Below are positions 2,556-20,960 of a DNA stretch of 64,000 bases, piece by piece. How positions within the stretch are numbered: position 1 is the stretch's first letter; every line of letters begins with the position of its first letter. The notes under the pieces were generated by a model that did not search any database, was not told the DNA's origin, and was given only the letters and a program-made list of their open reading frames with translations. The stretch lies in IMG/VR virus record IMGVR_UViG_3300017655_000275. The stretch is one strand, 5' to 3'. This DNA comes from a virus (Duplodnaviria > Heunggongvirae > Uroviricota > Caudoviricetes). The position numbers and the translations under genes are program-made.

Positions 2556-2585
2556 TTGATATGTCATGCGAAAAAATAGTATGGT
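2556..2585 (+). promoter_or_regulatory. Candidate sigma70 promoter of cas operon
   Basis: TTGATA-N18-TATGGT upstream of cas8f; spacer contains the ATGCGAAAA motif. Confidence 0.5.
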
Positions 2586-2618: not shown

Positions 2619-3719
2619 ATGTCTGAACCGGCAGCCGGCAGGATGCGGCGGCTCGTGTTGGGTTGTAATGATCCAGGGCAGCCCTATCCTGTGACGGAGA
2701 TCCTCAGGGTCTTCTCCGATCGAAAAATCGCCGCCGGGCAGGCGGATAATACAGAGTCCTTCGCCGCTGTGGCGCGGAATTCCGGCACCCATAACATGAA
2801 GGCCCTTGCGCCTAGGGCCAAGGATTACGTGATCCGGGCCACCGCAGCAGGAAATGCGCATCAAAGGCGTTGGTTACCTTTCGGGAATGGCCATCTGGCG
2901 AAGTATGCGAAAATAATCTTCATGCCGATCGCCATCGATGGTGCCGGACCGGCGCGTTCGCTTGTCGATCACGTCCTGGAACCGGACGAATGGTCCGATC
3001 TCGTCTTTGCCTCCTTCATCAACGCGTTCAGTCTTGAAAGCCTTTTGGCCATTCAGGATGGCCTTTCTGAACGCAGGAAGTTCGTGAGCGATATCAGGGA
3101 TCCCGGCATCCCTGTCACATTCATTCCCGGTCCGGACGGAGCCGACCTTCAGGTCACTCCGGTCAGCCCTATGGCCATGTTCAACGAATTCGCCGAGGAG
3201 CTGAAGACCGCGGATCGTCGTATTCCGGTCTGTTATCAGATGGTCTCGACGAAGCCACTCAACATCTCTGTCGCATTCGGCGGCATGAGAAAAAAATTCC
3301 ATGCGAAATTTCCGGAAAGGTTGAGCCCGCGATATGCGGCGGCCTGGAAGATCGTAAAGGGTGGGCATTTTCCCCCGCTTGACGATGAACAGGTCAGGCA
3401 GTTGATCGTGACATTTGCAGAGATGTATGCGCGCGAGCGTCTCGCCGCTTCCGGTGAAGCCTTCGTCAACGCACGGATGCGGATCGGGCTCGACCGGCTC
3501 GGCCATTGGATCATCGACCTTCTTCACGATCATCTGGAGGAAATCCGGGAGACGGTCCTGGAAGTCGATCCCCAATGCGAGCCGCGCTGTCAGGATCCGG
3601 TCGCGCTCCTCTGTAATGGGTATTGGGCCGACAAGGATCAGCGCGACAGGGTCCGGCAGGCATTGCGTTCCGCACGCTTCACATCCCTGCTCGAAAGGCG
3701 GGAATTGCCATGCGCGTGA
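2619..3719 (+). CDS. cas8f: Type I-F Cas8f (Csy1)-like large subunit, divergent
   Basis: GTHNMKALAPRAK resembles Csy1 THxxKxxHPxA; LQVTPVSP segment; first gene of a csy2-csy3-csy4 run. Confidence 0.6.
   Translation: MSEPAAGRMRRLVLGCNDPGQPYPVTEILRVFSDRKIAAGQADNTESFAAVARNSGTHNMKALAPRAKDYVIRATAAGNAHQRRWLPFGNGHLAKYAKIIFMPIAIDGAGPARSLVDHVLEPDEWSDLVFASFINAFSLESLLAIQDGLSERRKFVSDIRDPGIPVTFIPGPDGADLQVTPVSPMAMFNEFAEELKTADRRIPVCYQMVSTKPLNISVAFGGMRKKFHAKFPERLSPRYAAAWKIVKGGHFPPLDDEQVRQLIVTFAEMYARERLAASGEAFVNARMRIGLDRLGHWIIDLLHDHLEEIRETVLEVDPQCEPRCQDPVALLCNGYWADKDQRDRVRQALRSARFTSLLERRELPCA
2731..2745 (+). repeat. Third copy of the CRISPR-repeat hairpin core CCGCCGGGCAGGCGG, inside cas8f
   Basis: Exact 15-bp match to cores at 9392-9406 and 9455-9469. 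Confidence 0.8.
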
Positions 3720-4540
3720 TGATTTCAAACCTGATCGCCTATGATGTGAACCTGTCGCAGAACGATATGGTGGGAGGAATGCCGGCGATTTCGGCCTTCC
3801 TGGGTTTGGGATCAGTGCTTCTGCACGATGCCGGGTTCGACCGCTGGGAAGTCCGTGTTCTTCCCGTCATTCATGATTTGCAGAGAACGATGGGCCGCAC
3901 CAGGCCGGAATTGAGGATGGCCGACAAGACAGTGTCCGAGGGCTGGATGCTTGAGGATATGCCCGGCACCGTAAGGTTTTCGCTGATCCTGGACCTGCCG
4001 GGGCCCTGCGAGATCGACGACCTCATCATGTCACTCGAGGGAAGGCGCCTTGCGGGAGGCGTCATTTTCCCGGACCGGGTGGAAACGGGCCTGAAGGTGG
4101 CGGTCATATCGAAAGATGGAAAGGGCCTTCGCGGGCTTCGTCGCGGCAGGGCAGTCATCCCGGTGCCCAATTCGCCCGTGACCTTTGGTGACCCGGGCAC
4201 GATCCTGCCGGTCGGAATTGCCTATAGCCCGGCAGATCCGGAACCCGGACGACCGTGCAGCGATTTTCCGTCCTTTCCAGGTTTCATGGTCCCATGTGCG
4301 ATCGGTTATCGTTTCCTCAGCCGACCGGGCGAGGTGCCCAAAATGAAGGGCTTGCGAAAACCGGATATCCCACATGCTTTCGTGGAGCCGGGGGCCGGAA
4401 TTGCCGAACTCCTGTCGGTTCGAAATCCGCGCCTGACGGGGGCAAGCGAGACATGTCTCGATGAACTGTTCTGGCGTTGGTGCACAGGCCACGACCATGT
4501 CACGTTTCATCCGGCCTACAATCCAGATCACAAGGAGTGA
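3710..4540 (+). CDS. cas5f: Type I-F Cas5f (Csy2)
   Basis: GMPAISAFLG, RLAGGVI, PCAIGYRFL, HAFVEP motifs typical of Csy2; overlaps cas8f stop. Confidence 0.8.
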   Translation: MRVMISNLIAYDVNLSQNDMVGGMPAISAFLGLGSVLLHDAGFDRWEVRVLPVIHDLQRTMGRTRPELRMADKTVSEGWMLEDMPGTVRFSLILDLPGPCEIDDLIMSLEGRRLAGGVIFPDRVETGLKVAVISKDGKGLRGLRRGRAVIPVPNSPVTFGDPGTILPVGIAYSPADPEPGRPCSDFPSFPGFMVPCAIGYRFLSRPGEVPKMKGLRKPDIPHAFVEPGAGIAELLSVRNPRLTGASETCLDELFWRWCTGHDHVTFHPAYNPDHKE

Positions 4541-4544
4541 CCCA

Positions 4545-5675
4545 TTGATTCCGGTGAATTTCGAAGCTGGGCTTCGGTCGGCGAAGCATGGTTTCATGCG
4601 TTCGGTCCAGGCCTCATATGCCAGAATGTATGCAAGCTTGCCAGGCGGATACCGCAAACCGATTTCCGTCGATACCATCGGGATTTCCGGGGTGATCACC
4701 AATGCTCCGGGCGTGAAGGGGAAAGACGTCAAGGAAGGCCGGAACAGCCGTCAGCTTGTCGATCGGGCGATTATCCCGTTCGGGGCGATCGGACTCGAGA
4801 TCGAGTTTCACCTCCGCTTCATGCCGATGAGCTGGACACCGACCTTCTGCGATGATCCGGATGTGGATGACAACTACCGCAGTCTTGTGGACGCCTATAT
4901 CTCGAAAGGCGGATATCGCAATATTGCCCTGCTCTATGCCAACAACATCCTCAATGGCCGCTTCGCATGGCGGAACAGGCAAATGACCGACCGGGCGCAG
5001 ATCATCATATCCTTCGACGGGGTGATGATCTTCAGCGTCGATCCGCTCAAACTGAAACTCAGCCGCATGCATGGTATCGATGATCTGAAATCGGCCGTCA
5101 TCACCGGCAACCCCGATCGGATCGATGACTTCCTGGACCTGATCTCCCGTGGGCTTTCCGAAGCACCGACAAGCATTACGGTTACCTGGCGTTCAAGCAT
5201 GTTCGAAGGGGAAGAGGTGTTCCCATCGCAGAGGCTGCCGGCGAGCGACATGGAGGATCGTTTCAAGAACAAGGACGTCTTTGCAAACAGCCGACCCTAT
5301 ATGTCGGAAAGATGCTTCCACGAAGGTTTTCCGGTCAAACAGGCCGTCATGACAGCCCACAAGATCACAAACGCGATCCACACGATCGACCACTGGCACG
5401 GAAGCCACAGGCATGGTCCTATCTATGTCAGCGCCTATGGCGGAGTTCAGCGAACCAATGAGGCCTTGCGTGGCAGGGAGGCGCCGGCGCGCAGTTTCTT
5501 CGAGATCCGGGATGACCTTTCTTCCCTGATTGCCGATTTAGGCAGGGAGTGCGATGAAATGTCCGGAGATACCCATTTCTTCTTTGCATGTATCGCCAGA
5601 GGCGGCGTCTACTCGCAGGCGAAAACGACGGCCGCGGAAATGAAAGCTACCGAACGGGAGTTGGCCGATGCGTGA
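4545..5675 (+). CDS. cas7f: Type I-F Cas7f (Csy3); probable TTG start behind AAGGAG
   Basis: YANNILNGRFAWRNR, EVFPSQ, KITNAIHTIDHW, HFFFACIARGGVY match Csy3 motifs. Confidence 0.9.
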   Translation: MIPVNFEAGLRSAKHGFMRSVQASYARMYASLPGGYRKPISVDTIGISGVITNAPGVKGKDVKEGRNSRQLVDRAIIPFGAIGLEIEFHLRFMPMSWTPTFCDDPDVDDNYRSLVDAYISKGGYRNIALLYANNILNGRFAWRNRQMTDRAQIIISFDGVMIFSVDPLKLKLSRMHGIDDLKSAVITGNPDRIDDFLDLISRGLSEAPTSITVTWRSSMFEGEEVFPSQRLPASDMEDRFKNKDVFANSRPYMSERCFHEGFPVKQAVMTAHKITNAIHTIDHWHGSHRHGPIYVSAYGGVQRTNEALRGREAPARSFFEIRDDLSSLIADLGRECDEMSGDTHFFFACIARGGVYSQAKTTAAEMKATERELADA

Positions 5676-6339
5676 TCATGTGAATGAACATGGGGGGATA
5701 GGACTGAGCGCAGGCAAGGGAACCTGTCCTCTGGAATCCATGCTCGTGGTGGACATGGATGCGCAATCGCTTGAGATGGGCTTGGGGAAAACACTTCTCA
5801 AGGTGATCTTCAACGCCGCGCACCGGATAAACCGCCACAGCAGGACCGATGATTTTGTCGCCCTGCAGCTTCCCGATCTCGGAAGCCGTGCAGGCGTGAA
5901 GGGTATCGACACGGCTGGTTCGAGAGTATGTCTGTTCGGCAGACGATCCACTCTGGACAAGGTGATCCAGGATCTGGATTTCCTGCGCTTCGAGAAACGG
6001 CAGAGCCTGGAGTTCACCTTCGGGAAGATCCCTGCGGATTGCCAGGCTCGTGCCCTGGTTCGCAATAGGGCATGCGAAAAATTCTCCCCCGGAAGAGCCA
6101 AACGAGATGCGGCCCGTCGGGAACGCAGACAGGCCCATATTACAGCGACCTCCGGGCAGTATTCGGACAACAGGAAAGCCAGACCGCAACGGGATTTCCA
6201 TATCCAGCTCGACTCCGGTGTCTGCCTGGACATCCTCGCGGTGGATGGAGGCCCCTTGGCCACCGAAGTCTCGGTTTCCACCTATGGGTTATCGTCCGCA
6301 GCCGAGCCGCAATTCCTGCCTCTCGTCCCGTCGCTGTGA
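5668..6339 (+). CDS. cas6f: Type I-F Cas6f (Csy4) crRNA-processing RNase
   Basis: N-terminal His (NAAH), VALQLPDL, C-terminal STYGLS...FLP; position after cas7f. Confidence 0.75.
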   Translation: MRDHVNEHGGIGLSAGKGTCPLESMLVVDMDAQSLEMGLGKTLLKVIFNAAHRINRHSRTDDFVALQLPDLGSRAGVKGIDTAGSRVCLFGRRSTLDKVIQDLDFLRFEKRQSLEFTFGKIPADCQARALVRNRACEKFSPGRAKRDAARRERRQAHITATSGQYSDNRKARPQRDFHIQLDSGVCLDILAVDGGPLATEVSVSTYGLSSAAEPQFLPLVPSL

Positions 6340-6344
6340 GCACC

Positions 6345-9287
6345 ATGAACGATCGCCTTCATGCCCTGCTTGCCTCGATCCGTGTCGCTGCACTGTTTCA
6401 TGACCTTGGGAAAGCCACCAGGGTTTTCCAGGAAAAGCTCCGTCTTGCCATAGCTGGAGGGCGGGCAGCACCCGACCCTGTCCGACATGAGCTCCTGTCG
6501 GCCCTGATCTGGGACCAGCTTTGCGAGCGCAGGAGCGAGGCGGAAATCCTGGTCATGCTGCGCCGTATCAAGCCTGCCGATATTGACAGGGCATACGGAA
6601 AGGCAGTGCGCTCCGCGATCGAAATCCAGATGAAGGCGCGCAAGCTGCGCATGACCAATGTCTCGATTGACTTCAAATTCAATGCCAATGGCGGCCTGTC
6701 CCAGGCTGTCGGACTATTGATCCTGAACCATCACCATTTGCCCGGGCTGAGTGAAACCGGGCTGCGTTTCACCGCGGAAAACCACATCGCGTTGCAGGAC
6801 GTCTTCCGCTCTGGCGACCTCGATCACCACAATGCTCCGCGCTGCTGGCATGAAGACCGATGGATCTCGGGATTGCGCAAGCAGGCATCGATCCTGGAGG
6901 TGAACTCTGTCGATCCACTGATGGTGGATCTGTTCGGTCGAACGGTTCTCATGATGGCCGATCATCTCGCCTCGGCCAGGAAGGTGCCGTCAGATGGCCA
7001 TGGCCTGCTGGCCAATACCTTCATCACTGATGATGGTGATTGTCTTCCCGCGGACAGCCTGATCACCCATACCATGAAGGTGACCAATCATGTTACCGGA
7101 GCGTTCTCCGCGCTCATGGGAAGCCGTAATTGCTACCCCTCCATCCTGCAGGAAGACCTGCCCTCGAGCGTGATGCCAGAGGCAGATGAGACGGCCGGTC
7201 GTTTTCGGTGGCAGGGCAGGGCAGCAGAAGCTGCGAGAAGGATTGCATCTGAGGGGGGCGGTTTCTTTGCCTGCGTCATGGCCGGGACCGGCGCCGGAAA
7301 GACCAGGGCTGCGCCCAGCATCCTGGCCGCAGCGGCCGCCGGCGAGCCAGACCGGAACCGGAGACACCTGCGGTTCACCTTGGCTCTGGGCCTGCGGACA
7401 CTGGCCACGCAATCCGGAAAGGAATATCTCCGCGATCTCGGCTTCATGAACCATGACGTCGCGATCATGGTTGGCCAGCCGCCGATCGAGTTCCGGAGCC
7501 CTGCGCAGGAGGGGATGAAAGATCTGGACGGCATCGAACTCCTCGATGCCTATGGCAACCACCTTGTCGATGATCCCAGCCGGATCGTTCCGGGGTTCAT
7601 CCGTTCCATGGCGAGATCGGGCGGTCTGTCACGGGGCAGGAAACTCATGAGCCTTGCTGCGGCGCCGGTGATCTGCGCGACGATCGATCATCTGATCGCC
7701 GCAGCATCGCCGCTCGGCTCGAACCATCTCGCGGCATCCCTGCGTGTCATGACATCCGATCTGATCATCGATGAAGTCGACCAGTTCGGCTCCGAGGATT
7801 TTTCCGTCGTTGCGCGGCTTGTCAATCTTGCCGGACACTCCGGCAGGAAAGTCATGGTCATGTCCGCAACGATAACCCGGCAGATGGCCTGTGTCCTTGC
7901 TGAAAGCTATAGCCGCGGGTGGGCCGAACATGCGCGGCTGTTCAACGCACAGCGCCATGTGAACTACCTCTGCACCTCGGATGCTGATCAGGTGGAGGCA
8001 TGCCTGACAACGAGGGTGGATGGGGGATTCCGGTCGATATTCGAGACGGTGAGCTCGGCTACGATCGAAGCCCTTTCGAAGGCGCCGGCCTGCCGGAGCG
8101 CTGAGATCCTCCCGTTGGAGTCTCATGTCGATGTTCCGGCCGTCGTCGGCGATTGCATCTCCAGGATGCATGACCGTCACGCCTCCGACATCGAGGGCTA
8201 CAGGGTCAGTTTCGGATTTGTCCGCCTGACGAGGGTCAGCCATACGGCTGAGCTCGCTCGTGTCCTGCCGATGGATGTGGAGGGAAGGCTCCGGCTCGTT
8301 CTCTGCCTTCACTCCAGGTTTCCACGACTTCACCGATCCTGGATCGAGGACCAGCTGCGCGGATCCCTGACAAGGAAAGGAGCCGATCCGCATGCCGGGC
8401 TAGCAGCCTTCTGCAGGGATCACGAGGTTTTTGATCGCGCCGATGCCCGCTCGACAAGGGAGATCGAACTGGTTCTGATCTGCTCTCCTGTGATCGAGAC
8501 CGGGAACGATCTGGATTTCGACTATGCCATCCTTGATCCATCGAGCACCAGATCCATCATTCAGTCCAGCGGGCGGGTCGTCAGACACCGGATGATTTCA
8601 GTCCACGAACCCAACATCGCGATCCTCGGTCGCCCCCTGGTCAGCTTCGACAAGGGAAGAGTAGAGATGCCGGGCGTAGAGACCGACAATCCGGAAGCGA
8701 CGAGGGTTTCCCGGCTCGACCTTGCCGAGTTCGGCATCGCCAAGCCCCTGAGCCGGGAGCTGTTCGACGGCCCGGATCTTTCGAAGATCGATGCATCCTG
8801 GATCCTGGACCGGATGGTCACTTGTCCGCTTCTTGCGGCAGAGATGGATCACGTCGGCCGCTTCCTGTGCGGCGATGAGGCAGGCCTCGATAACTGGATG
8901 GTCGATATCCTGCGCCGCAACAGTTCAAGGCAGGCAATGATGCGCCGCTTCCGCCGATCAATTTCGGAAAATGTCACCGTCCTCATCGCAGATGATGAAG
9001 CTGGCCGGCCAACATGGATGGTCGATCGGAATCCTCTCTCGGTGGAAAAACTCCTGGAGCCCGCCACCCTGGAGGTCGAGGAGGAGCCTCGCCATCTGAT
9101 CGTCCCGGATATCGCAGGGCGCGCCTGGACGGACAGGCATGGCAAGGATGCGGAGGTCACGCCGGAAAGATTGCGTGAGGCGAGCGAGATTGGCTGGCCG
9201 ATCTATTTCGGTTCGGAAACCGGCAAGATGATCTATTCAGAGGCGCTCGGACTCCGGCGAGAGAACAGCAGAGGAATCTTTTCCTAA
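6345..9287 (+). CDS. cas3: Cas3 HD nuclease-SF2 helicase, type I-F-like, without N-terminal Cas2 domain
   Basis: LFHDLGKA 16 aa from start, NHHH, ADHLAS, Walker A AGTGAGKT, DEVD, MSAT, IIQSSGRVVRHR. Confidence 0.93.
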   Translation: MNDRLHALLASIRVAALFHDLGKATRVFQEKLRLAIAGGRAAPDPVRHELLSALIWDQLCERRSEAEILVMLRRIKPADIDRAYGKAVRSAIEIQMKARKLRMTNVSIDFKFNANGGLSQAVGLLILNHHHLPGLSETGLRFTAENHIALQDVFRSGDLDHHNAPRCWHEDRWISGLRKQASILEVNSVDPLMVDLFGRTVLMMADHLASARKVPSDGHGLLANTFITDDGDCLPADSLITHTMKVTNHVTGAFSALMGSRNCYPSILQEDLPSSVMPEADETAGRFRWQGRAAEAARRIASEGGGFFACVMAGTGAGKTRAAPSILAAAAAGEPDRNRRHLRFTLALGLRTLATQSGKEYLRDLGFMNHDVAIMVGQPPIEFRSPAQEGMKDLDGIELLDAYGNHLVDDPSRIVPGFIRSMARSGGLSRGRKLMSLAAAPVICATIDHLIAAASPLGSNHLAASLRVMTSDLIIDEVDQFGSEDFSVVARLVNLAGHSGRKVMVMSATITRQMACVLAESYSRGWAEHARLFNAQRHVNYLCTSDADQVEACLTTRVDGGFRSIFETVSSATIEALSKAPACRSAEILPLESHVDVPAVVGDCISRMHDRHASDIEGYRVSFGFVRLTRVSHTAELARVLPMDVEGRLRLVLCLHSRFPRLHRSWIEDQLRGSLTRKGADPHAGLAAFCRDHEVFDRADARSTREIELVLICSPVIETGNDLDFDYAILDPSSTRSIIQSSGRVVRHRMISVHEPNIAILGRPLVSFDKGRVEMPGVETDNPEATRVSRLDLAEFGIAKPLSRELFDGPDLSKIDASWILDRMVTCPLLAAEMDHVGRFLCGDEAGLDNWMVDILRRNSSRQAMMRRFRRSISENVTVLIADDEAGRPTWMVDRNPLSVEKLLEPATLEVEEEPRHLIVPDIAGRAWTDRHGKDAEVTPERLREASEIGWPIYFGSETGKMIYSEALGLRRENSRGIFS

Positions 9288-9346: not shown

Positions 9347-9375
9347 TTGCGAAACATTTTCTCATGATATAAAAT
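9347..9375 (+). promoter_or_regulatory. sigma70 promoter of the mini-array
   Basis: TTGCGA(9347-52)-N17-TAAAAT(9370-75); predicted +1 near 9382, just before repeat 1. Confidence 0.7.
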
Positions 9376-9386
9376 ATTGATGTCGG

Positions 9387-9477
9387 AAGATCCGCCGGGC
9401 AGGCGGCTGAAAGATGTTTTCTCCCGACGCAGTCGCTTATCAGCGATTTCATACCCGCCGGGCAGGCGGATCTTCAA
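9387..9477 (+). CRISPR. Degenerate one-spacer type I-F-like mini-array (repeat-spacer-repeat)
   Basis: Two CCGCC-GGGCA-GGCGG hairpins (5-bp stem, 5-nt loop, as in I-F repeats) 63 bp apart; repeat 1 is followed by handle-like CTGAAAGA; adjacent to cas3. Confidence 0.7.
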
Positions 9478-10282
9478 TACGGGCTGTGGAACAGGAACGT
9501 CTCGCAGCCCGTATTTCGTCGCGATTTTTCCCATGCATCGACCGGTTCGTCACCAGCGTCCTGGTGACGTCCAGATCTCCGGTCTCGATCCGCCGCCACT
9601 CCTCCGTCACGCGTTCAATTTTTCTGGAAAACCAAACCGGATCCTTCTCGATGGTCACGGCCCTGCGTCCCGTCCGCATGGCCGCGATCGCCGTTGTGCC
9701 GGACCCGCAGAATGGATCCAGGACCAGATCGCCAGGTTGGGAACTGTTCAGTATATATTCCATGAAGAGCTCGACCGGCTTTGCCGTCGGGTGCCAGTCT
9801 ATGTCCGGCCTTGAATGGAAGGCCGATTGCTTGGACCCGGGGAAATTGATGGTTCTTGCTTTCCCCTTGAAGAGATAGACCGTGTATTCGGTATCCTTCA
9901 TATACCAGCGGTTCCTGGTTGCGGTCTCTTTCCGCCAGGTCAGCAGGTTGTGAAGCCGAAATCCTGCCGCCGTGAATGCGGCATGGGCATTGAAGACCTC
10001 CTTGTCATTGGCCATGATATAGGCGTCCGCCCGATCCTTGCAGGCATCGAACATCGGGCCGGCCATCTCATCCCATCGAAGAAGGCGCATCAGCTTGCCG
10101 GAATTGTCATACCGGTCAGAAGAGAATTTTCCCTTCATGTGATCACCCTTCCGGCCGCCGGATGTCAGCTTGTAGGGCGGATCGCTCACCAGGAGATCCG
10201 CCATCCCCTTCAGGTCTGGAAGAACATCCCGGGAGTCGCCGAGTATGAGCCGGCATGGGCCAATCTGGACTTCCTTGCGCAC
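9449..10282 (-). CDS. Beta-class N6-adenine/N4-cytosine DNA methyltransferase, orphan
   Basis: SDPPY, then HPTAKP and LDPFCGSGTT; probable GTG start at 10282 behind GGGGGAAGG (ORF open to 10348). Confidence 0.9.
   Translation of the reverse strand: MRKEVQIGPCRLILGDSRDVLPDLKGMADLLVSDPPYKLTSGGRKGDHMKGKFSSDRYDNSGKLMRLLRWDEMAGPMFDACKDRADAYIMANDKEVFNAHAAFTAAGFRLHNLLTWRKETATRNRWYMKDTEYTVYLFKGKARTINFPGSKQSAFHSRPDIDWHPTAKPVELFMEYILNSSQPGDLVLDPFCGSGTTAIAAMRTGRRAVTIEKDPVWFSRKIERVTEEWRRIETGDLDVTRTLVTNRSMHGKNRDEIRAARRSCSTARIEDPPARRV
9476..9515 (+). terminator. Hairpin closing the mini-array transcript
   Basis: Perfect 11-bp stem AATACGGGCTG/CAGCCCGTATT directly after repeat 2. Confidence 0.55.
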
Positions 10283-10421
10283 GAACCTTCCCCCTGCATC
10301 GTCAGGGAGAAGGTAATCCGGCTTGCACCATAGCGAATAAATTCGCATTGGAATTATTCTGGTATCATGTGGATAACCAGGATGGCGGCCGATCGGTCAA
10401 CACGACCAGGCAGATGCGGCA

Positions 10422-11267
10422 TCAGGCGGTGAAAATTTCCTGTGCCAGACCACGTCCGTGCGCCTTAACGATCTTCCATGCCTTCGCAACCGTCCGGTGC
10501 TCACAGGAATCCAGCATCCAGCACCATTGGCTCACCTGACGGAGATATTTCTCAGAGCTGGAGGGCATGGTTTCGAATGCCTCTTCCAGTCCTTCGGCAC
10601 CTGGCCACAGAATGTCCATGAAGCCAGGGACAGAAAGTGCAAGACCGAGACCTGCAGGATCGAAGTCCGGAAAGACGACGACCCGCGGCTTGCAAGCGCG
10701 CAGGAATTCCTGACATGCACTTTCCGGAATCGTTGGGTCGCCCCTGTAGACGATGATGAACGTCCTGTAGCATGCAGGGATATCGAATGAGAGCCGGTCG
10801 AACCTCTCGAAGCTTTCCCAGTTCTCAACAGTGATCACCCCCTCTATTTCATAGGATGCAAGCTCCGATGGAAGCATCGATGCCCAGGTATTGCCGGGAA
10901 GCGTCAGCTTTCCAGCAGTCCCTTCAAGGGCCTGTCCGGTCTGCAAGCGAAATGCGACCCGCGGCTCACGGACGCGGGTTCGGGTCATTTTCTCATTGGA
11001 TATCCGGAGAGACAGGAAGCCTCGGCTTGAGTCGATTGGAATTGGCTTGTCTCCGATCTCATCGATCGTCCGCCGGCTCGCTTTGTTCATTTGCTCGACC
11101 AGGTTCTGGAGCCTGTCGCAGTCATCGGGCGACAGGTGGATTTTCTTGCCGGCCCGGGCCGGGATATCCGCCTGTCGCAACAACCTGGCCAACGGCTCGC
11201 CGCATTTGCCGACAAATCCCTGCTTCAGCGCCTTTGCTGCCTGGTTCAAAGCTGTGATCTGGTTCAT
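10422..11267 (-). CDS. jetD: Wadjet JetD/MksG-like TOPRIM nuclease
   Basis: ITVENWESF, IVYRGD, FPDFDPAGL (TOPRIM E and DxD); ATGA overlap with upstream gene. Confidence 0.75.
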   Translation of the reverse strand: MNQITALNQAAKALKQGFVGKCGEPLARLLRQADIPARAGKKIHLSPDDCDRLQNLVEQMNKASRRTIDEIGDKPIPIDSSRGFLSLRISNEKMTRTRVREPRVAFRLQTGQALEGTAGKLTLPGNTWASMLPSELASYEIEGVITVENWESFERFDRLSFDIPACYRTFIIVYRGDPTIPESACQEFLRACKPRVVVFPDFDPAGLGLALSVPGFMDILWPGAEGLEEAFETMPSSSEKYLRQVSQWCWMLDSCEHRTVAKAWKIVKAHGRGLAQEIFTA

Positions 11268-12442
11268 GCCGCCCTCCTGACTTCGATATCGCTCACCATG
11301 CTGGTGAACACCTGATCCAGCGGAGGCTGGAACGTGCAGTCGAAATGATCCGGCGAGGCCAGGACGTTCTGCAACACCAACTCGAATGCGACGTCCTTGT
11401 CCTCGCCATGTTCGAATGTCTCCAGCCATCTCCGGACGGAGAATTTCTCATTCCCGACATCCTTCCCGAACCTGTCGAGGATGATTTCAGCCGTGCTTTT
11501 GGGCAGATCCATGTGCCTTTCATCGAAGGGGACAGGGGTCAGGGCCTTGAGTGCCTTGCCCTTCGCGCGTTGCGGTTCCTTCGGTTGCATAGTTGCCGCA
11601 TGCCGGATCCTCGCGATCTCGAGTTCCTGATCGTTGGGATCGGTGATGACTCCGAAAGAAAATCTGGGAAGAATCGGAAAGAGTTCCGGATGCGCAAGAA
11701 CCGCTTCGACCATTTCAGTATGCGAAATCTCCCGCAACGCACGGCCGATCAGGCGCAGACGCCGTGTCCGCTCCATGATCTCGGTGTTTCTGGCCAGCAG
11801 GACCCGCAATTTCCCGATTACGGCGGTGAGACGGGCGCTGAGATGCGGGATGTAACGAGAAATCATCCGGTCATATTCGCGACGGACTTCGCGACAGCCG
11901 GACTCTGCCAGGTGATCGCGCAATGCGTGATCCTGAAGTTGCGAGATGCTTTCGTTCAAAGCGTTCGCACGATCGAAATAGAAGCGATTTCGGCGCAATC
12001 GCTGGTCGAGCGTGCGTGCTTCCTGAAAACCTGTGTGCAGATGCATCTCGAATTGCGCGAGTTGCATATCGAGGGCATCTCTGATCGACCAGATCAGGCC
12101 GTGAGCCTCCTCGATATGGTCGAGCCGGTCCTGTTCGTCCCCATCGCCGAAATCTGCCGAAATTTCTATCAGGAGCATGCGCAATGCGCCAAGATCCTCG
12201 ACAATTCCGGCCGCTGAGCCAAGCGCGCCACGGCGACCGACAGAACGATCCAGCATGTCGCGGCATGTCCGGCTGAGCCTGAACTTTCCTTCATCATCAC
12301 CGATGACGACCTGAATCGACCGGAGCTCTGCAAAAGCCCGCATGGTCGACTGATCGGCATAGACATGCCCTTCACGGTGGATCCTGTCGAGCAGATCACC
12401 ATATTTTGCGCCGATGCTGAAGAATTTCGCAACATCAATCAT
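11264..12442 (-). CDS. jetA: Wadjet JetA/MksF-like kleisin subunit
   Basis: Helical 392-aa protein with N-terminal wHTH-like FRLS segment; assigned mainly from operon position. Confidence 0.55.
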   Translation of the reverse strand: MIDVAKFFSIGAKYGDLLDRIHREGHVYADQSTMRAFAELRSIQVVIGDDEGKFRLSRTCRDMLDRSVGRRGALGSAAGIVEDLGALRMLLIEISADFGDGDEQDRLDHIEEAHGLIWSIRDALDMQLAQFEMHLHTGFQEARTLDQRLRRNRFYFDRANALNESISQLQDHALRDHLAESGCREVRREYDRMISRYIPHLSARLTAVIGKLRVLLARNTEIMERTRRLRLIGRALREISHTEMVEAVLAHPELFPILPRFSFGVITDPNDQELEIARIRHAATMQPKEPQRAKGKALKALTPVPFDERHMDLPKSTAEIILDRFGKDVGNEKFSVRRWLETFEHGEDKDVAFELVLQNVLASPDHFDCTFQPPLDQVFTSMVSDIEVRRAA

Positions 12443-13068
12443 GAGAACAGGTCTCCCTGGATCTCGGTCTCGATTTCGCCGACGCGCTCGGTCAACCTGG
12501 GAATGTGGGCAAGGAACTGTTCGAGATTATCGAAAGCATAGTCCACCTTGCCGCTGACCACGTATTCTTCCCGGGCGGCGTTCAGCTCCACCAGATAGCC
12601 GTCATCCGCAAATTTCCGGAGAACCCGGCTTGCGGCTTGTGCATGGGTATCAGGTCGAAGGCCGAAACTGTCGGCCAGGAGCATGAGCTTTTCACCCAGC
12701 GAGGAGTGATCCTCGATTGCGGCAACAATCCTGCCCGCGGAGATGACGAGCCCCATTTCAAGGGGCGGCGATGCCTTGTCGACATCCTGCCAGAACTCCG
12801 AAAATGCCAGAATTCTGTTTGTCCCTTCTACGATGTCACGGGCTTCGCTGCGCAGAAGGACTTCACCTTCACGCTGCGAGGCCGGTGTCGCAAAGAACGT
12901 GCGCTTGCTCGAGGTTACGCCCAGCCTCAGGCCGATGCGGCTGAGGGTGACCTCGAGCATGTCGCCACGATCGGGATCCGTGAGATAACCATGAAGATCT
13001 CCGGCCGAATAGCGGCAGATCGTCTGTTTCGACAGAAGTGCCTGGAGAGTGCGTGCCAGAATGTCCAT
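12439..13068 (-). CDS. jetB: Wadjet JetB/MksE-like KITE subunit
   Basis: 209 aa, tandem wHTH-like pattern (LRKFADDGYL...YVVSGKVDY); coupled to the SMC gene. Confidence 0.65.
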   Translation of the reverse strand: MDILARTLQALLSKQTICRYSAGDLHGYLTDPDRGDMLEVTLSRIGLRLGVTSSKRTFFATPASQREGEVLLRSEARDIVEGTNRILAFSEFWQDVDKASPPLEMGLVISAGRIVAAIEDHSSLGEKLMLLADSFGLRPDTHAQAASRVLRKFADDGYLVELNAAREEYVVSGKVDYAFDNLEQFLAHIPRLTERVGEIETEIQGDLFS

Positions 13069-16000
13069 CAGTTCACCTCCGGATAGACGAGTTCACCGGT
13101 ATCAGTCCACTCACGGACGGCGCGGCGCATGATGCCGCTATTGTCGGACCGCAGAATCTGCGCGCCATTCTTGTCGGGACGAGCCGTAATGCTCAGCCGG
13201 TTCTGGAACGCCTTCATGACTTCGATATCCATATTGGGGGCGCCGGTTACCAGGCGGATGCCATTATCCCCCAGCATCCTGACGAGATTGGTCCCGTTGT
13301 TGCGGTCCAGCCGGCCGAATTCATCGACACACCAGGTGAAGATGACATTGCTGCCCGATCTCATGATGGTGATCGCCGCGGTAAGAATGATCAGACGGAT
13401 GATGCTCGATCCGCCTTCCGATGACAGGTCCTCGATCTTGGTATCGCGGCTCATGCGCCAGGTCTGACGACCCTCGGTCACAGTTCCTTCGAGATACATC
13501 ATCTCGCGGATGTTGATCGTCGGCGCGCCACCATCGCTCCAATGCTCGAACAGCATGGCCATGGCGTCGACCAGTTCGTCCGGCGCCGAAGTTGCGATCT
13601 CCCTTTCCCAGAGCCCGAAGAGTTCATCGAAGCGTTGGAGATCGGCCCAGAAAGGCTGTGCTGAAATCCTCGACCGGACATGCAGGTCGATGTCGGTGAT
13701 GCCGGGAAAACGGACATTGGACCGGATGGCATCACGCAGGCGGCGGTTCAGCGTGGAAATCTCTCGATCCGCATCGCTCAGGTCAATGTAGAACTTCCTG
13801 ATAGGATGGCACATCGCGCGGAGCTCCAGTCGGAGCCCCTCACTGACCTCGACATGCCGTTCGTTATACCAGGATGCGAAGATGGGGAGCCACTTCAGGC
13901 TTGCGGCGGCGCTTCCCGATTTCGCCATTCCGTCCTGCATGAAGTCATGGATCACGCCACGCTTCTGGAGAAAGCGGCTCTGCAGGGCACCGAGGTCGTC
14001 GATGATCGTTCGGGTGAGCGATTTCCGCTGGACGTCGAGAGACCTGATCGACGTGATGATGGCTTCAGGCGTTTCGATCACCTGCTCATCTGCCTGGGCT
14101 TCCACGCGATATCCGAAACTCTTGCCGTTCTCGATTTCCTTGACGCAGGTCTCATGGGCCCGAGCGGTGGCTGCGATCCGTTTCACGAGCTTTTCGATCT
14201 TGGCTTCATGCGCTGCAACCGCCGCCTTGAATGTCGCCTTGCGATCGGCGAGGCGATCCTCATCCATGCGGATCTGCTGTTCAGCAGCTGAAATGCGGGC
14301 GGGCAGGGAATCGAGCTTCGGCTTTTGCTTGCCGAGGAACCAGTTCCATTCCGCAAGCATCTCCGACAGCGCCTCGTTGGCGGAGATGCGGCCGGCCAGT
14401 TCGTCACGTTCCGCCGAGAGGCTTCTGATGCGCTCCGGGTCCGCGCCTTTTTCCGAAAGAGCCGCGGCCAGATCGGTCTTGTTCCGTGCAATGTCCTTCC
14501 GGAAGTTCTCGCGAACAGACTGGCGTTGCGCCTCGATGCTTTCCTGCTCCATCCGGAACGCAGCGTTTGCCTCCGTCATTCGGACCGCAAGCCCATCCAT
14601 CAGAGACTTGATCCTGGTCTTCAGGTCGGCCTCATGAATCCGCGCGTTCTCATGGTGTCGCTGAAGCTCACGGCTTGCCTCGGCCATCCTGGCATCGACA
14701 TCCTTCCTGCGGTTGGCAACACTCTCCTGAACGGCCTCTTCCGCAAGCTGAAGTTCTTCGCGACGGCGATCGCGAGACTGGGTGGCGAGTTGGAGCTCCG
14801 TTTCCAGCCTGGTTTGTTCCTTGCTGGAGTTCCGATACAGCGCCGCAGCTTTTTCCAGCGCCTTGCGGTCGGTGGAAACCATGGCTTTTGCCGCTTTGAC
14901 CGCTTCATGAGCGGATTCAACGGCGGCTTCCAGCTTTTCCCGGTCGGCAAATTCCGGCAGGTCGATCTTCTCGATATCGATAGCTACGCCGTAGATGCTC
15001 TGGCCATCGGCCAGGCGCGGGGAGAGATCGCGACGACGCAGGAGTTCAGGATGAACCAGCCGGCCGATCGAGGTCCCCCAATCCGGGTGGTTCTTCGAAA
15101 GCCAGGCATGGAAGCTTCCATCTTCGGGGCTCAGACGCTGAACCAGTCTTGCATGACGGGCGACAGCCTCCACCTCATTAGCCTGCGATTTCAGGACTTC
15201 CCGCTCGATCTCCGAGAGGGCGTCCTTCGCCTTTCCGGTTTCAACTCGCGATTTTTCACACGAGGCGGCAGCGGTGCGCAGGGTTGCGTCTGCAGCGATC
15301 AATGCTGTTTTGGCGCGTTCCTGTGCAAGAATGACATCGGAATCCGCGGTAATGGCCAAGGCTTCCCGCGACAGGGCGTCACGCAACTGGTCGACCTTGA
15401 CGATTTCGGCATTGATCTCAGAGGATCGGATTTCTGCCTGCTCCCGGGCATGGGCCTCAGCCGCCGCGGCTTCTGCGCGAGTGCCGTCAGCGATTTTTCG
15501 CAGCCTTTCCTCATTGATGGAATTGGCCTCGGCCAGTTCCGCCTCCCGCTTGTGAAATGCGTCTTTCAGCCGGTCCGAGTTGCGCTCGAAAGCATTGACG
15601 ATGCTTTTGCCATTGCCATTGAGCGCTTCGAGTGTCGCTTCGGTTCGTGCCAGGGCGCTCCGCAATGAGGGAAGCTCGGATTTGGCCTGCTGGGCCTTGT
15701 CCGCGCCTTTCGAAAGAAGAATACGCTCTTGTTCCCTCAGATCCGAGATCTCCCCGTTCATGGAAAGGAGGCCACCCTCGGTTTTGCCGATCCGTTCGCT
15801 GATGATCGCGATTTCGGTTTCGGATGCGGATTTGCTGTCCTTCCAGGCATCCGTCGTCTTCGACTTCTCATCTTCAAGGTCAATCAGTTCTCGCGCAAGA
15901 CGCAGCTCCGCCCCCGCCAGGCGGTCGTATTCCGAGGCGATGCCATCCTCTACGACCGTGAGGTTCACCGCCTTCTTCTCGGTTTCCCGAAATGACGGTT

Positions 16001-16802
16001 CGTGTTCCATGACCGATCGGTAGGCCCGGAACTGTTCAGGATACTCCCTGCGCGTCTTCGATTTCGCATCAACGAGATGAATAATGCCCTTCTTGCCGGC
16101 ATCATCGTCTGAATCGATGATCTGGCGGGCAAGAATCCCCAGGAGGTCGTTGATCGAGAAGCTGTTCTGGAGCGTGGTGATCGCCAGGCGATCGATCCCA
16201 ATCAAAGGGTTCTTCAGGCTCCCAAGACCGAATTCGGCAATCATGCCTTGCAGGAAGGACCTGTCCTTGGGGGAGTCCGTATCGATGAACCCCTGGATGA
16301 TTCCGCGATACTCTCGGTTGACCTCGATCAGACGCTCGGCCGGCTGATAGCCCAGTCGCCGCGCATGACGTTCAAAATCCTGAGCACGGACCCACTCGCG
16401 TTCTCCATCTTCGTTTTCGCGAAGGAACAGCTCCGCAGAAAGACCCGATCGCAGGAACCGATACTGGACCTCCGTGCGGGATGGGTTGGAATGCATGACC
16501 ACAGATCGCACATCGCCGCGGGCATTACGATATTCGAATGCGATATAGGATTCCTCGCGCGGCAAGTAGAAGTTGATGAAGTTCAGTCGCTCCCGACTGG
16601 AGACGATCTGGCTCTTCCTGGCGCCCAGAAAGAACGGCGTCAGGCTCATCAGCGAGGTCTTTCCTGCCTGGTTATGGGCAATGAGCGCCGTGTGCTCGTC
16701 GAGGGGGAGTTCCTCGATCCGCCCTTCCATGAGCGTGAAGTTGACCACAAGCATGCGGATGAGGCCCGGCATGACGCGCGCGCCCGTCTCGATATCAGTC
16801 AT
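13068..16802 (-). CDS. jetC: SMC-like ATPase JetC/MksB (DUF3584-like)
   Basis: N-terminal Walker A AHNQAGKT, long coiled coil, signature LSSEGG, Walker B WCVDEFGRLD. Confidence 0.85.
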   Translation of the reverse strand: MTDIETGARVMPGLIRMLVVNFTLMEGRIEELPLDEHTALIAHNQAGKTSLMSLTPFFLGARKSQIVSSRERLNFINFYLPREESYIAFEYRNARGDVRSVVMHSNPSRTEVQYRFLRSGLSAELFLRENEDGEREWVRAQDFERHARRLGYQPAERLIEVNREYRGIIQGFIDTDSPKDRSFLQGMIAEFGLGSLKNPLIGIDRLAITTLQNSFSINDLLGILARQIIDSDDDAGKKGIIHLVDAKSKTRREYPEQFRAYRSVMEHEPSFRETEKKAVNLTVVEDGIASEYDRLAGAELRLARELIDLEDEKSKTTDAWKDSKSASETEIAIISERIGKTEGGLLSMNGEISDLREQERILLSKGADKAQQAKSELPSLRSALARTEATLEALNGNGKSIVNAFERNSDRLKDAFHKREAELAEANSINEERLRKIADGTRAEAAAAEAHAREQAEIRSSEINAEIVKVDQLRDALSREALAITADSDVILAQERAKTALIAADATLRTAAASCEKSRVETGKAKDALSEIEREVLKSQANEVEAVARHARLVQRLSPEDGSFHAWLSKNHPDWGTSIGRLVHPELLRRRDLSPRLADGQSIYGVAIDIEKIDLPEFADREKLEAAVESAHEAVKAAKAMVSTDRKALEKAAALYRNSSKEQTRLETELQLATQSRDRRREELQLAEEAVQESVANRRKDVDARMAEASRELQRHHENARIHEADLKTRIKSLMDGLAVRMTEANAAFRMEQESIEAQRQSVRENFRKDIARNKTDLAAALSEKGADPERIRSLSAERDELAGRISANEALSEMLAEWNWFLGKQKPKLDSLPARISAAEQQIRMDEDRLADRKATFKAAVAAHEAKIEKLVKRIAATARAHETCVKEIENGKSFGYRVEAQADEQVIETPEAIITSIRSLDVQRKSLTRTIIDDLGALQSRFLQKRGVIHDFMQDGMAKSGSAAASLKWLPIFASWYNERHVEVSEGLRLELRAMCHPIRKFYIDLSDADREISTLNRRLRDAIRSNVRFPGITDIDLHVRSRISAQPFWADLQRFDELFGLWEREIATSAPDELVDAMAMLFEHWSDGGAPTINIREMMYLEGTVTEGRQTWRMSRDTKIEDLSSEGGSSIIRLIILTAAITIMRSGSNVIFTWCVDEFGRLDRNNGTNLVRMLGDNGIRLVTGAPNMDIEVMKAFQNRLSITARPDKNGAQILRSDNSGIMRRAVREWTDTGELVYPEVN

Positions 16803-16927
16803 CCAATCGTTTTCCCTATCGTGGAATTTGTCCCATTCTAGCAGGCGGCCCTTACGACTTAAAGCATTTTCGCATGGACTATTCCTGGTGGAGCAGGTAG
16901 CTTCGCCAGATGCCGAAGGAGGAACCC

Positions 16928-17611
16928 ATGATGAAAATCAGCTGGCCTTGGAAGCGCCGCAACGGACAGCAAGTATCTGGATTTCCGATGACGTCCGTGA
17001 ACGGTTTTACAAGACGCCTGCAGGTGAGTATCGAAGACAGGGAGCAAAGAGCCAGGCATTTCGCCGACTTCGTGTTCCTGCCGGACGGTAAGGTGATGCG
17101 ATTCCCGGATGGCGCCGATATCGAGATTGCCATCGCGCTGGCCGAGCCTGCACCTGTGAAATATAGGACGCGAGGAAAACCCGGTCATGGTGAGAAAGCG
17201 GTGCTCTTCCGCCTTGGAGAGGGCGGTGCGCTGACCGGACCATGTTTCTGGAAAAGAACCACAATCATGGATAGTCGCGCTGACAGGTTCAGCCGGTTCG
17301 TTCTCGGGAAAATCCATACCATCATCGGGCTATCAACGGCCTCTACTGTGTTTTTCGCAACTCTCATCCAGGGGTTCGGTATGGATATGGCCAGAATTCC
17401 GGCGCTTCTCTCCATCTTCGCCCTTTTCCTGGCCGTATTGATCTGGGTGAGGGAAATCCTGCAGAACGAGGAGGCGGCCAAGCCGGTCATGATGATGCCC
17501 GGATGGTGGGTCCTCGCCTATTCACAAAACCTCCGGGAGCAACTGGCACGCGGCATTGCCCGTGATGCAGGTGATGAAAGGAGCCATGCAGGGCAGGCAT
17601 GGGAGACCTGA
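16928..17611 (+). CDS. Hypothetical membrane protein
   Basis: AGGAGG RBS; two or three hydrophobic segments in the C-terminal half. Confidence 0.7.
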   Translation: MMKISWPWKRRNGQQVSGFPMTSVNGFTRRLQVSIEDREQRARHFADFVFLPDGKVMRFPDGADIEIAIALAEPAPVKYRTRGKPGHGEKAVLFRLGEGGALTGPCFWKRTTIMDSRADRFSRFVLGKIHTIIGLSTASTVFFATLIQGFGMDMARIPALLSIFALFLAVLIWVREILQNEEAAKPVMMMPGWWVLAYSQNLREQLARGIARDAGDERSHAGQAWET

Positions 17612-17706
17612 AAACCCAGAACTGGTTTTCGCATGGATAGTCCCCTATATTCTGCGGTGCAGCATGGCTGGATCGTCCTGCCAGCAGTCGTTTTCAGGAG
17701 AGAAAC

Positions 17707-17940
17707 ATGTCCGCCGTTTCCGCATTCGACGCGGTCCATCCACCAAGCATGAAGCACCCCTCGCTTCTGCGTCGGATCTTTGCCAGCTTCGTTGCCGCCA
17801 AGGCCGCCCGCGACACGGCGGATGCGCTTTACCGACTGTCCGATCGGGAACTCGACGATATCGGACTGACGCGCGGCGATATCCCCGCCAGGGCCATCAA
17901 GTCGAGCGAGCAGACCTACATGAGCATGATCGGGCGCTGA
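17707..17940 (+). CDS. DUF1127 (YjiS-like) small protein
   Basis: LYRLSDRELDDIGLTRGDI signature. Confidence 0.9.
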   Translation: MSAVSAFDAVHPPSMKHPSLLRRIFASFVAAKAARDTADALYRLSDRELDDIGLTRGDIPARAIKSSEQTYMSMIGR

Positions 17941-17960
17941 TCCGAGACCCAATTTGCGAA

Positions 17961-17995
17961 AAGGCCGGAACTGTGTTCCGGCCCTTCTTTTTTTT
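17961..17995 (+). terminator. Rho-independent terminator
   Basis: AAGGCCGGAA-ctgtg-TTCCGGCCCTT followed by a T run. Confidence 0.85.
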
Positions 17996-18018
17996 GCAGA
18001 CTTTTCAAGAAGCATGGG

Positions 18019-18648
18019 CTACATGATCATCTCGATCGCGGCAGCGCAGGTTTCCCTGTTATCCCACAGTTCCGCAAGGGAGCCGTTCTTCGGTGGCAGG
18101 ATGCCACCTGGATGATATTCACAGATCGCCCTTCCTTCCCTGGAAACCGAGATCCATTCACTGGAAGGCCCCACCCTTGATATCTCGATTTTCGGAATGT
18201 CCTCCGGCGGGATGGAGGAAGGCTTCACATCCCTGATCATCTCCAGGACCAGCCGAAAGGAGCCACAGCTGGCTTCTCCATAAGGCAGGAGTTGGGCTGG
18301 CAGCGTCCTTCCAGGCGCCAGGTAGACGCGGCCATCAAGGCGGCACAGGAAGCCTGTGTCGGCAAGCTCGAAGGTGGTTTCATCATGGAAATCACGCCGC
18401 ATGACGAGATCGAGGTCATTCATTGATATGACCTTGAATTTCCGGATGTCACCCCGCCTTTCCTTGACTGCCAGGGCGCTCTGTTCCTTTTGCCTGGCTT
18501 CGACGATGGCCTCTTTTCGTGCATCCGTCTGATCCAGTGCTCCGGCAAGCATCATCGCCATGAAGGCGCCACCGATCAGGGTGATCGCAAGCGGAGAACC
18601 TTGCCGATCCTTGACCTCTTCGTGATAACCGCGTCTCGCCATGACCAT
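18019..18648 (-). CDS. Hypothetical protein with N-terminal membrane anchor
   Basis: Start MVMARR behind GGAAAGGAG; hydrophobic LAITLIGGAFMAMMLAGAL. Confidence 0.65.
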   Translation of the reverse strand: MVMARRGYHEEVKDRQGSPLAITLIGGAFMAMMLAGALDQTDARKEAIVEARQKEQSALAVKERRGDIRKFKVISMNDLDLVMRRDFHDETTFELADTGFLCRLDGRVYLAPGRTLPAQLLPYGEASCGSFRLVLEMIRDVKPSSIPPEDIPKIEISRVGPSSEWISVSREGRAICEYHPGGILPPKNGSLAELWDNRETCAAAIEMIM

Positions 18649-20886: not shown

Positions 20887-20960
20887 GCGGAAATCCTTTC
20901 GCACTCTACCCGGTGAGCATAGGGATGAACCGGGAAAGATGCAATTTCGCAAATTTATAT

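Follow-up and report, generated by a model that had tools for sequence, protein, structure and literature searches.

In the virus record IMGVR_UViG_3300017655_000275 (Caudoviricetes), a stretch of 64,000 nucleotides, referred to here as the window, carries a type I-F CRISPR-Cas operon in which cas6f is directly followed by a cas3 gene whose product lacks the Cas2 domain, and in which cas1 is missing. We consider it probable that this locus descends from an alphaproteobacterial I-F1-like system by streamlining and loss of the adaptation genes, and that it works as an interference module with a fixed guide. Adaptation-less CRISPR-Cas systems on mobile elements are already known and the gene order is not new; what the sequences add is the clean, recurrent and independent trimming of cas1 together with the Cas2 domain, which is also present in a sequenced isolate and which in the window is accompanied by a single guide and by a copy of the Cas6f hairpin inside cas8f.

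The operon consists of five intact, closely packed and co-directional open reading frames (ORFs) on the + strand (2619-9287), with the gene limits as called on a public contig of the same sequence. Searches with the hidden Markov models (HMMs) of PADLOC and Pfam confirmed the order cas8f-cas5f-cas7f-cas6f-cas3, which an earlier note on this DNA had proposed:

2619-3719 (+): cas8f (Csy1), large subunit, 366 aa; PADLOC Cas8f PDLC01145, E 1e-71
3710-4540 (+): cas5f (Csy2), 276 aa; Pfam Cas_Csy2, E 1.4e-7; PADLOC Cas5f, E 6e-11
4545-5675 (+): cas7f (Csy3), backbone subunit, 376 aa; Pfam Cas_Csy3 PF09615, E 1e-42; PADLOC Cas7f, E 4e-47
5668-6339 (+): cas6f (Csy4), pre-crRNA (CRISPR RNA) endoribonuclease, 223 aa; Pfam Cas_Csy4 PF09618, E 3e-8
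6345-9287 (+): cas3, 980 aa, HD nuclease, superfamily 2 helicase and I-F-type C-terminal domain; PADLOC Cas3f PDLC01286, E 1e-106

The Cas_Csy3 match to Cas7f spans profile positions 7-328 of 328, and the profile matches to Cas5f cover the C-terminal part only, as they do in the relatives. Cas7f, Cas6f and Cas3 all score under the NCBIfam equivalog cut-offs (Cas7f 135 bits vs 157.6 bits; Cas3 E 4e-101 against TIGR02562, by which the Cas3 portion is of the I-F type). The proteins are therefore divergent, as had been noted before. Cas6f keeps an arginine-rich helix as well as the His52 and TYGLS residues that are invariant in the clade.

The ATG of cas3 lies 5 nt past the stop codon of cas6f, and this start is predicted to be clean, new and translationally coupled to cas6f. 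The HD dipeptide of Cas3 is H19-D20 with 18 residues ahead of it; the start had been placed just before the HD motif, which is correct in position, whereas the 16 preceding residues given at the time are not. The HD ligands (H19, D20, H48, H129, H130, D206 and H207) and the helicase motifs (Walker A G314-T320, DEVDQ 476-480, SAT 507-509 and motif VI Q740...R749) all sit in columns that are invariant across the aligned relatives, so that the retention of HD, Walker A, DExD, SAT and motif VI could be verified. In an alignment with the Cas2/3 protein of Pseudomonas aeruginosa (PDB 5b7i), residues 124-896 of the latter matched residues 14-781 of the window Cas3 (E 1e-66). Since this alignment runs from residue 124 onto residue 14 of the query, the Cas2 domain and the linker are absent. 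Likewise, the Cas2/3 proteins of the relatives align to the window Cas3 from directly behind their Cas2 domain, and a Cas2-domain HMM gave no match; together with the 5b7i alignment this substantiates the Cas2-free Cas3 that the earlier note had described. Identity amounts to 40-48% with the nearest Cas2/3 proteins and to approximately 37% with two plasmid proteins. Type I-F is usually recognised by the fusion of Cas2 to Cas3 and by the complex that this fusion forms with Cas1; in the window, no Cas2 is fused to the Cas3 N-terminus.

To search for adaptation genes, the nearest relatives were used to build Cas1 and Cas2-domain HMMs, and translations in all six frames were searched with these while every filter was disabled. 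No Cas1 or Cas2 match was obtained with these clade HMMs in the 64-kb window, in L001 or in the 14.2 kb upstream (L015); window and upstream DNA together make up 78 kb. In the positive control (Paracoccus) the Cas1 HMM matched with E 1e-189 and the Cas2-domain HMM with E 1e-54. The reported lack of cas1 and cas2 in the window was thus confirmed against a working control, and the absence of spacer-acquisition genes, including the cas1f of a typical I-F locus, extends over the 78 kb.

The nearest non-self relatives of Cas7f are 36-40% identical, with 37% identity to a Paracoccus protein. In seven metagenomic contigs (L003-L009) and in an assembly of Paracoccus liaowanqingii (L002, SRPG01000004) the order of the relatives is cas8f-cas5f-cas7f-cas6f-cas1-cas2/3, and the same order was found in the RefSeq complete plasmids of Neokomagataea tanensis (NZ_CP032486.1) and Pararhizobium gei p3 (NZ_CP119411.1). 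The source names of the homologues indicate that this sub-lineage is mainly alphaproteobacterial. Because the nearest relatives share the order cas8f-5f-7f-6f-(cas1)-cas3, it is not special to the window locus, and the description of the operon as rearranged had to be abandoned; the order is standard in the nearest I-F sub-lineage. The Cas1-bearing systems of Paracoccus, Neokomagataea and Pararhizobium, some of which are plasmid-borne, have the same five effector genes, the same order and the same repeat stem as the window. Unlike the window, they possess cas1, a Cas2-Cas3 fusion of 1092-1119 aa and usually a divergent WYL regulator. A canonical array with 28-nt repeats and 32-nt spacers lies behind cas2/3 in L002, L003, L005 and L006, and arrays of 13-43 repeats are seen where the contig extends far enough, whereas the window has one spacer. 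In the ancestral arrangement cas1 lies next to the Cas2 domain, and one contiguous deletion of approximately 1.3 kb would yield the window operon. The boundary of the Cas3 alignment coincides with the expected end of such a deletion.

An exhaustive HMMER search with Cas3 was carried out over 1.8 billion cluster representatives. Many full-length I-F Cas3 proteins were found to start right ahead of the HD motif. A first count of Cas2-less proteins (18 of 56 full-length rows) is an upper bound, because alternative start calls mimic the loss of Cas2 and raw counts are therefore overestimates. The gene context was looked up for six candidates (L010, L011, L012, L013, L014 and L018). L013 was rejected as an artefact, since its apparent lack of Cas2 comes from an alternative start codon within an otherwise normal cas2/3 gene. 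Such shortened calls of normal cas2/3 genes were observed for L013:7722-11012 (1003 aa vs 1096 aa in full) and for P0165 of Paracoccus liaowanqingii as called by NCBI (989 vs 1106 aa). The other candidates have a genuine cas6f-cas3 junction:

L010: metagenome; no array seen
L011: metagenome; approximately 10 repeats at the cas1 place and at least 24 behind cas3
L012: metagenome; at least 7 repeats
L014: metagenome, partial contig of 3.6 kb, too short for an array
L018: Cereibacter sphaeroides isolate, GCA_021389875.1, JAIRAS010000113.1; 91 repeats

In none of these five was a Cas1 or Cas2 signal detected with the HMMs in the six frames of the contig DNA. As in the window, cas8f-5f-7f-6f are followed directly by a Cas2-less Cas3, which has approximately 980-998 aa and starts directly ahead of the HD motif. 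The earlier note had taken the window locus for a divergent variant; with the same junction in five other loci, its architecture is not unique. The Cas3 proteins of these loci are 35-40% identical to the window Cas3 and are not its closest kin. Cereibacter also differs from the window by its 91 repeats in flanking arrays and its WYL regulator. The Cereibacter arrays (L018:3210-4802 and 13734-18300) have a regular spacing of 60 nt with no cas1 within 10 kb, and the downstream array is split into several blocks with variant loops. In L011, a degenerate array lies between cas6f and cas3 (L011:4156-4714), at the position of cas1 in the relatives, and a second array with a different repeat type opens the contig (L011:1-163).

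The six verified Cas2-less Cas3 proteins (the five loci and the window) are pairwise at most 42% identical, and each of them is at least equally close to Cas2-bearing proteins. In an IQ-TREE phylogeny (LG+C20 PMSF) six state changes are needed for the six proteins, at least four of which are forced by well-supported branches, and the window Cas3 groups with three Cas2-bearing proteins with 99% support. Monophyly of the Cas2-less proteins was rejected by the approximately unbiased (AU) test (log-likelihood difference 323, p 2e-5). With a single origin rejected, cas1 and the Cas2 domain were lost repeatedly and independently. This independent recurrence in five other loci, of which three carry multi-spacer arrays, argues for the viability of the trimmed form.

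Approximately 100 bp past cas3, a mini-array with one spacer, to which the earlier note makes no reference, was found by direct reading (9387-9477, +), and the system is therefore not guide-less. It was missed by TRF, by generic repeat finding, by Rfam and by a fuzzy search with the 28-nt repeat of the relatives. Its parts are:

9347-9375 (+): promoter-like leader TTGCGA-17-TAAAAT, from a consensus scan
9387-9414 (+): repeat 1, with a 5-nt flank, stem-loop CCGCC-GGGCA-GGCGG and 8-nt handle CTGAAAGA, by direct reading
9415-9449 (+): single spacer, 35 nt, by direct reading
9450-9477 (+): terminal repeat 2, with the same stem-loop and a degenerate 3' end, by direct reading

The repeat has the I-F design of 28 nt with a 5-bp stem, a 5-nt loop and an 8-nt handle, the handle being seen in repeat 1. 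The same stem-loop, letter for letter, is found in the array repeat of Cereibacter sphaeroides, and the stem matches Paracoccus-type repeats. Repeat 2 overlaps the last codons of a convergent methyltransferase ORF. The flank GAAGAT of repeat 1 is complementary to the 3' flank ATCTTC of repeat 2 (window 9386-9396 and 9465-9475), and therefore the ends of the array transcript are paired in its minimum-free-energy fold, where an 11-bp stem surrounds the repeat-spacer-repeat unit. This stem could compete with the Cas6f hairpin or stabilise the precursor.

A further copy of the repeat hairpin was found by sequence scan inside the operon:

2731-2745 (+): exact sense copy of the 15-nt repeat stem-loop in codons 38-43 of cas8f

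Within the 64 kb the stem-loop is present three times without a mismatch (at 2731, 9392 and 9455), each time on the + strand, and shuffled sequence yields 0.49 matches even when up to 2 mismatches are allowed. The cas8f copy shares 17 nt with the terminal repeat, sits in an indel-rich and poorly conserved stretch (a loop) of Cas8f, and is absent from cas8f of the relatives checked (L003, L005 and L007-L009). Cas6f may bind or cleave at this copy and thereby exert feedback on the operon.

An AlphaFold (AF2) model of Cas8f, made from an alignment of 8 sequences, has a mean predicted local distance difference test score (pLDDT) of 67, with C-terminal blocks at 76-93 that are all helical. From this model a C-terminal helical bundle is assigned to residues ~235-366. 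The assignment is suggestive only, because the fold matches of Cas8f are weak and tied with generic helical proteins: Foldseek reached an E of 3e-3 at best and VIA a Z of 5.6 at best, and the top matches, all of them weak, were I-F Cas8 chains that stood level with the generic proteins. Against P. aeruginosa Cas8f the whole model aligned weakly (Z 5.5), and residues 241-366 matched residues 278-430 with Z 4.6. In P. aeruginosa the Cas8f bundle recruits Cas2/3, whereas the Cas8f of the Vibrio phage ICP1 lacks the bundle and Cas1 is needed as a bridge (bioRxiv 10.1101/2024.03.09.584257). P. aeruginosa Cas1 is also reported to restrain Cas2/3 (Rollins et al. 2017, as cited in PMC10161043). A system that lacks Cas1 would be expected to retain the bundle, and the modelled Cas8f of the window appears to do so. 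The I-F system of ICP1 likewise resides on a mobile element and is used offensively against another element. It has kept cas1 and cas2/3 together with a bundle-less Cas8f, Cas1 bridging Cas2/3 to the Csy complex, and the window would represent the opposite solution, with Cas1 absent and the bundle apparently present.

The 2025 classification distinguishes I-F1 to I-F4 and an I-F1/I-F2 intermediate (Makarova et al. 2025, PMC12669027). I-F2 is without Cas8f, I-F3 is without Cas3 and carries Tn7-like genes, and I-F4 has an HNH-Cas8f and typically no Cas3 (PMC12669027). Like the window, these are derived I-F systems in which parts were lost or replaced. With Cas8f present, Cas3 intact and no HNH domain, the window lies outside all three, and no other form listed in that classification corresponds to it either. 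I-F2 was rejected because of Cas8f. I-F3, the CRISPR-associated transposon (CAST) form, was rejected because Cas3 is intact and cas8f and cas5f are separate genes (I-F3 often has a Cas8f-Cas5f fusion); Pfam scans of the neighbours revealed no TniQ or Tn7 domain. I-F4 was rejected because Pfam reports no HNH domain in Cas8f (0 families) and Cas3 is present. The Cas7f backbone, the separate Cas8f and Cas5f, and Cas6f with its repeat are all those of type I-F, with divergent profile scores. The window is thus classed as a putative derived I-F1-like variant, which has the effector features and lacks the Cas2-Cas3 fusion and cas1.

Huge-phage CRISPR-Cas systems typically have compact arrays and no Cas1, Cas2 or Cas4 (Al-Shayeb et al. 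2020, PMC7162821), and adaptation modules are found in 36% of plasmid systems vs 88% of chromosomal ones (Pinilla-Redondo et al. 2021, PMC9071438). The window fits this class of adaptation-less systems on mobile elements, with intact effectors, no cas1 or cas2 over the 78 kb, one spacer and an accessory replicon. It has in common with the huge-phage and plasmid systems that the nuclease residues are conserved, that the array is very short and that a role in conflicts between elements is presumed. It differs from them in that neither survey (PMC7162821, PMC9071438) describes an I-F system with the Cas2 domain trimmed off Cas2/3; subtype I-F is absent from the main text of the huge-phage paper (PMC7162821). 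A text search of the literature found no paper on an I-F Cas3 without its Cas2 domain.

The window Cas3 is carried by a 230-kb contig, and a neighbouring gene is also present on a larger contig (0.2-1 Mb class). The replicon is, as far as these contigs and the gene content indicate, larger than 200 kb and a large accessory element of a Paracoccus-like soil bacterium; the taxonomy of the homologues fits an alphaproteobacterial host of the Rhodobacterales type. The mobile or accessory setting proposed earlier is supported by the many ORFans and accessory genes of this large element, and the GC content of the operon is like that of the rest. Near the operon lie genes for HipBA, a Y-family polymerase, ThyA/DHFR and an MgsA-like ATPase, and further genes on the element encode an NAD-dependent ligase, a class II aminoacyl-tRNA synthetase (ThrRS-like), a PARP and NAD-salvage proteins. 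As PHROGs gave almost nothing on 20 ORFs (transposase and families of unknown function only), the element is not assignable as a giant phage or a megaplasmid. In the INPHARED phages there was no megablast match to the locus, and at the protein level only an Acinetobacter phage Csy3 with 24% identity was found; no IMG/VR locus was found by Cas7f patterns. The locus is identical in three soil metagenome samples of 2018. In a separate study of 2021, short contigs, mostly at least 99% identical, cover parts of the locus at low depth, which indicates presence only.

Upstream of cas8f a promoter-like site was found by consensus scan:

2556-2585 (+): promoter-like site TTGATA-18-TATGGT before cas8f

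It contains the word TGCGAAAA at 2567-2574, 44 nt before the ATG of cas8f. This word is over-represented across the element, with 25 copies in the window vs 2.7 expected. It also occurs on the + strand within cas8f, cas5f and cas6f (2906, 4353 and 6073), and these internal copies may be internal promoters. Where the relatives carry the WYL regulator, the window has two ORFs of 461 aa and 181 aa (510-2481, +), the former with its own TGCGAAAA at 453. Searches against Pfam, PADLOC, PHROGs and NCBIfam left both unmatched, and a search of Atlas for the larger one also came out empty. The region 9449-16802 (-), convergent with cas3, holds a gene for an N6/N4 DNA methyltransferase and then a four-gene operon that encodes a DUF3584 SMC-like ATPase (1244 aa), the products of a 209-aa and a 392-aa ORF, and a DUF7281 protein. 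This DUF3584/DUF7281 operon was not recognised by PADLOC and looks like a Wadjet/Mks-like candidate DNA-surveillance system. At 19370-20952 (-), genes for a GmrSD N-terminal (DUF262) protein and a DEDDh (RNase T-type) exonuclease lie side by side. PADLOC matches for the exonuclease were to the CRISPR-associated DEDDh model (E 3e-29) and to PDC-S48; as 10 kb separate it from the cas operon, any link between the two is tentative.

Interference competence of the locus is plausible, given the intact HD and helicase motifs and the predicted C-terminal helical bundle of Cas8f. The matching GC content, the over-represented word ahead of cas8f and the recurrence of the locus in separate soil samples also speak for a working module. 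Starting from an ancestor with the order cas8f-cas5f-cas7f-cas6f-cas1-cas2/3-array, a single contiguous loss of cas1 and approximately 105 codons of the Cas2 domain would have coupled cas6f to a stand-alone Cas3, and the array would have been reduced to one spacer. The mini-array would be transcribed from its own promoter and cut by Cas6f past each stem-loop, giving one crRNA with the 5' handle CUGAAAGA, on which Cas8f, Cas5f, six Cas7f and Cas6f would assemble. At a match flanked by a protospacer-adjacent motif (PAM), the Cas8f helical bundle would recruit the Cas2-less Cas3, and the target would be nicked and degraded. Cas1 would be unnecessary for this recruitment and unable to restrain Cas3. 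The locus would thereby act as a hard-wired nuclease for a single target, most likely a competing mobile element, and new guides could be gained only in trans or by recombination.

Several observations weigh against such a module. The spacer unit is 35 nt instead of 32 and the period 63 nt instead of 60, out of the 6-nt Cas7 register, and the 5' flanks of both repeats depart from the clade consensus, the terminal repeat being degenerate. No target of the spacer was found in the 64-kb window, in IMG/VR or in 185,579 species genomes, nor in the JGI metagenome contigs, a collection that evidently lacks the contig of the window itself. In structural alignment the Cas8f bundle scores low (Z 4.6-5.6), and the catalytic histidine of Cas6f was not mapped, as no usable alignment to a solved Csy4 was obtained. 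A cas1-cas2/3 locus or more arrays may also lie elsewhere on the replicon, beyond the 78 kb searched.

In a rather unlikely alternative, the effectors depend on the host: crRNAs and spacers would be supplied by a compatible I-F system of the host or of a co-resident element, and the local array would be minor or residual. The stem CCGCC/GGCGG is indeed the same as in Paracoccus-type arrays, and in Cereibacter the whole 15-nt stem-loop is the same. The regular 91 repeats of the Cas1-less Cereibacter locus suggest that acquisition in trans occurs in this lineage, and use of the host adaptation machinery in trans has been proposed for systems on mobile elements (PMC9071438; PMC7162821). However, the 5' handle of the mini-array differs from the Cereibacter repeat at 3 of 8 positions, and the window Cas6f is 26-33% identical to Cas6f of the Cas1-bearing L002, L003, L006 and L007. 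Since handle and Cas6f diverge, cross-compatibility is uncertain; in addition, a promoter-like site of its own precedes the local array. Less probable again, and in our view doubtful, is a decaying remnant that has lost adaptation and nearly the whole array and has no current function. The single spacer of odd size, the degenerate repeat flanks and the lack of a detectable target would agree with decay, and orphan or incomplete plasmid loci are common and perhaps eroding (PMC9071438). Yet five ORFs with 6.7 kb in total are uninterrupted with every catalytic motif kept, the cas3 start appears cleanly re-engineered and translationally coupled, the locus was unchanged in the 2018 samples and nearly identical in the fragmentary low-depth contigs of 2021, and five other lineages have each kept this architecture independently.

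A regulatory device is very improbable as an explanation. It would comprise a CreR/CreA-type mini-array that by partial complementarity guides Cascade to a promoter for repression, a Cas6f that acts on the cas8f mRNA hairpin and so feeds back on its operon, or both. Mini-CRISPRs that regulate cas genes have reportedly been described in work on CreTA/CreR, and the array with a single spacer and degenerate repeats beside the cas genes resembles them. The exact sense hairpin in cas8f also speaks for regulation, its chance occurrence being estimated from base composition at ~1e-3 per window. However, no PAM-flanked partial match of the spacer of at least 9 nt exists in the 64-kb window; promoter targeting of the CreR/CreTA type was rejected, with a best seed run of 8 nt in the window and no CC PAM. 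The complete nuclease and helicase of Cas3 would be superfluous in a pure repressor. The hairpin is also missing from the relatives' cas8f genes that were checked, and the local cas8f mRNA has a minimum-free-energy fold other than the simple hairpin. A fixed-guide interference module is the reading that we prefer.

Taken a step further, the recurrent trimming in alphaproteobacterial I-F systems may have been selected and have led to Cas1-independent 'weapon-only' modules, limited in the window by Cas6f acting on the cas8f mRNA hairpin; we regard this extension as quite unlikely. If it were true, Cas6f, for which the array provides just two hairpins, would bind or cleave the copy in the cas8f mRNA and thereby throttle the operon. 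This would be a natural Cas6-based autoregulatory loop, a kind that is not known to have been described.

In annotations, Cas3 proteins of this type carry names such as 'hypothetical' or 'HD domain-containing', and alternative starts need to be considered in surveys. Cas1 and the Cas2 domain appear to have been discarded at least four to six times, with Cas3 and the predicted Cas8f bundle kept. Such lineages can serve as test cases of whether I-F interference runs fully independently of the adaptation proteins, and they would illustrate the way in which mobile elements reduce CRISPR-Cas to a weapon with a fixed guide.

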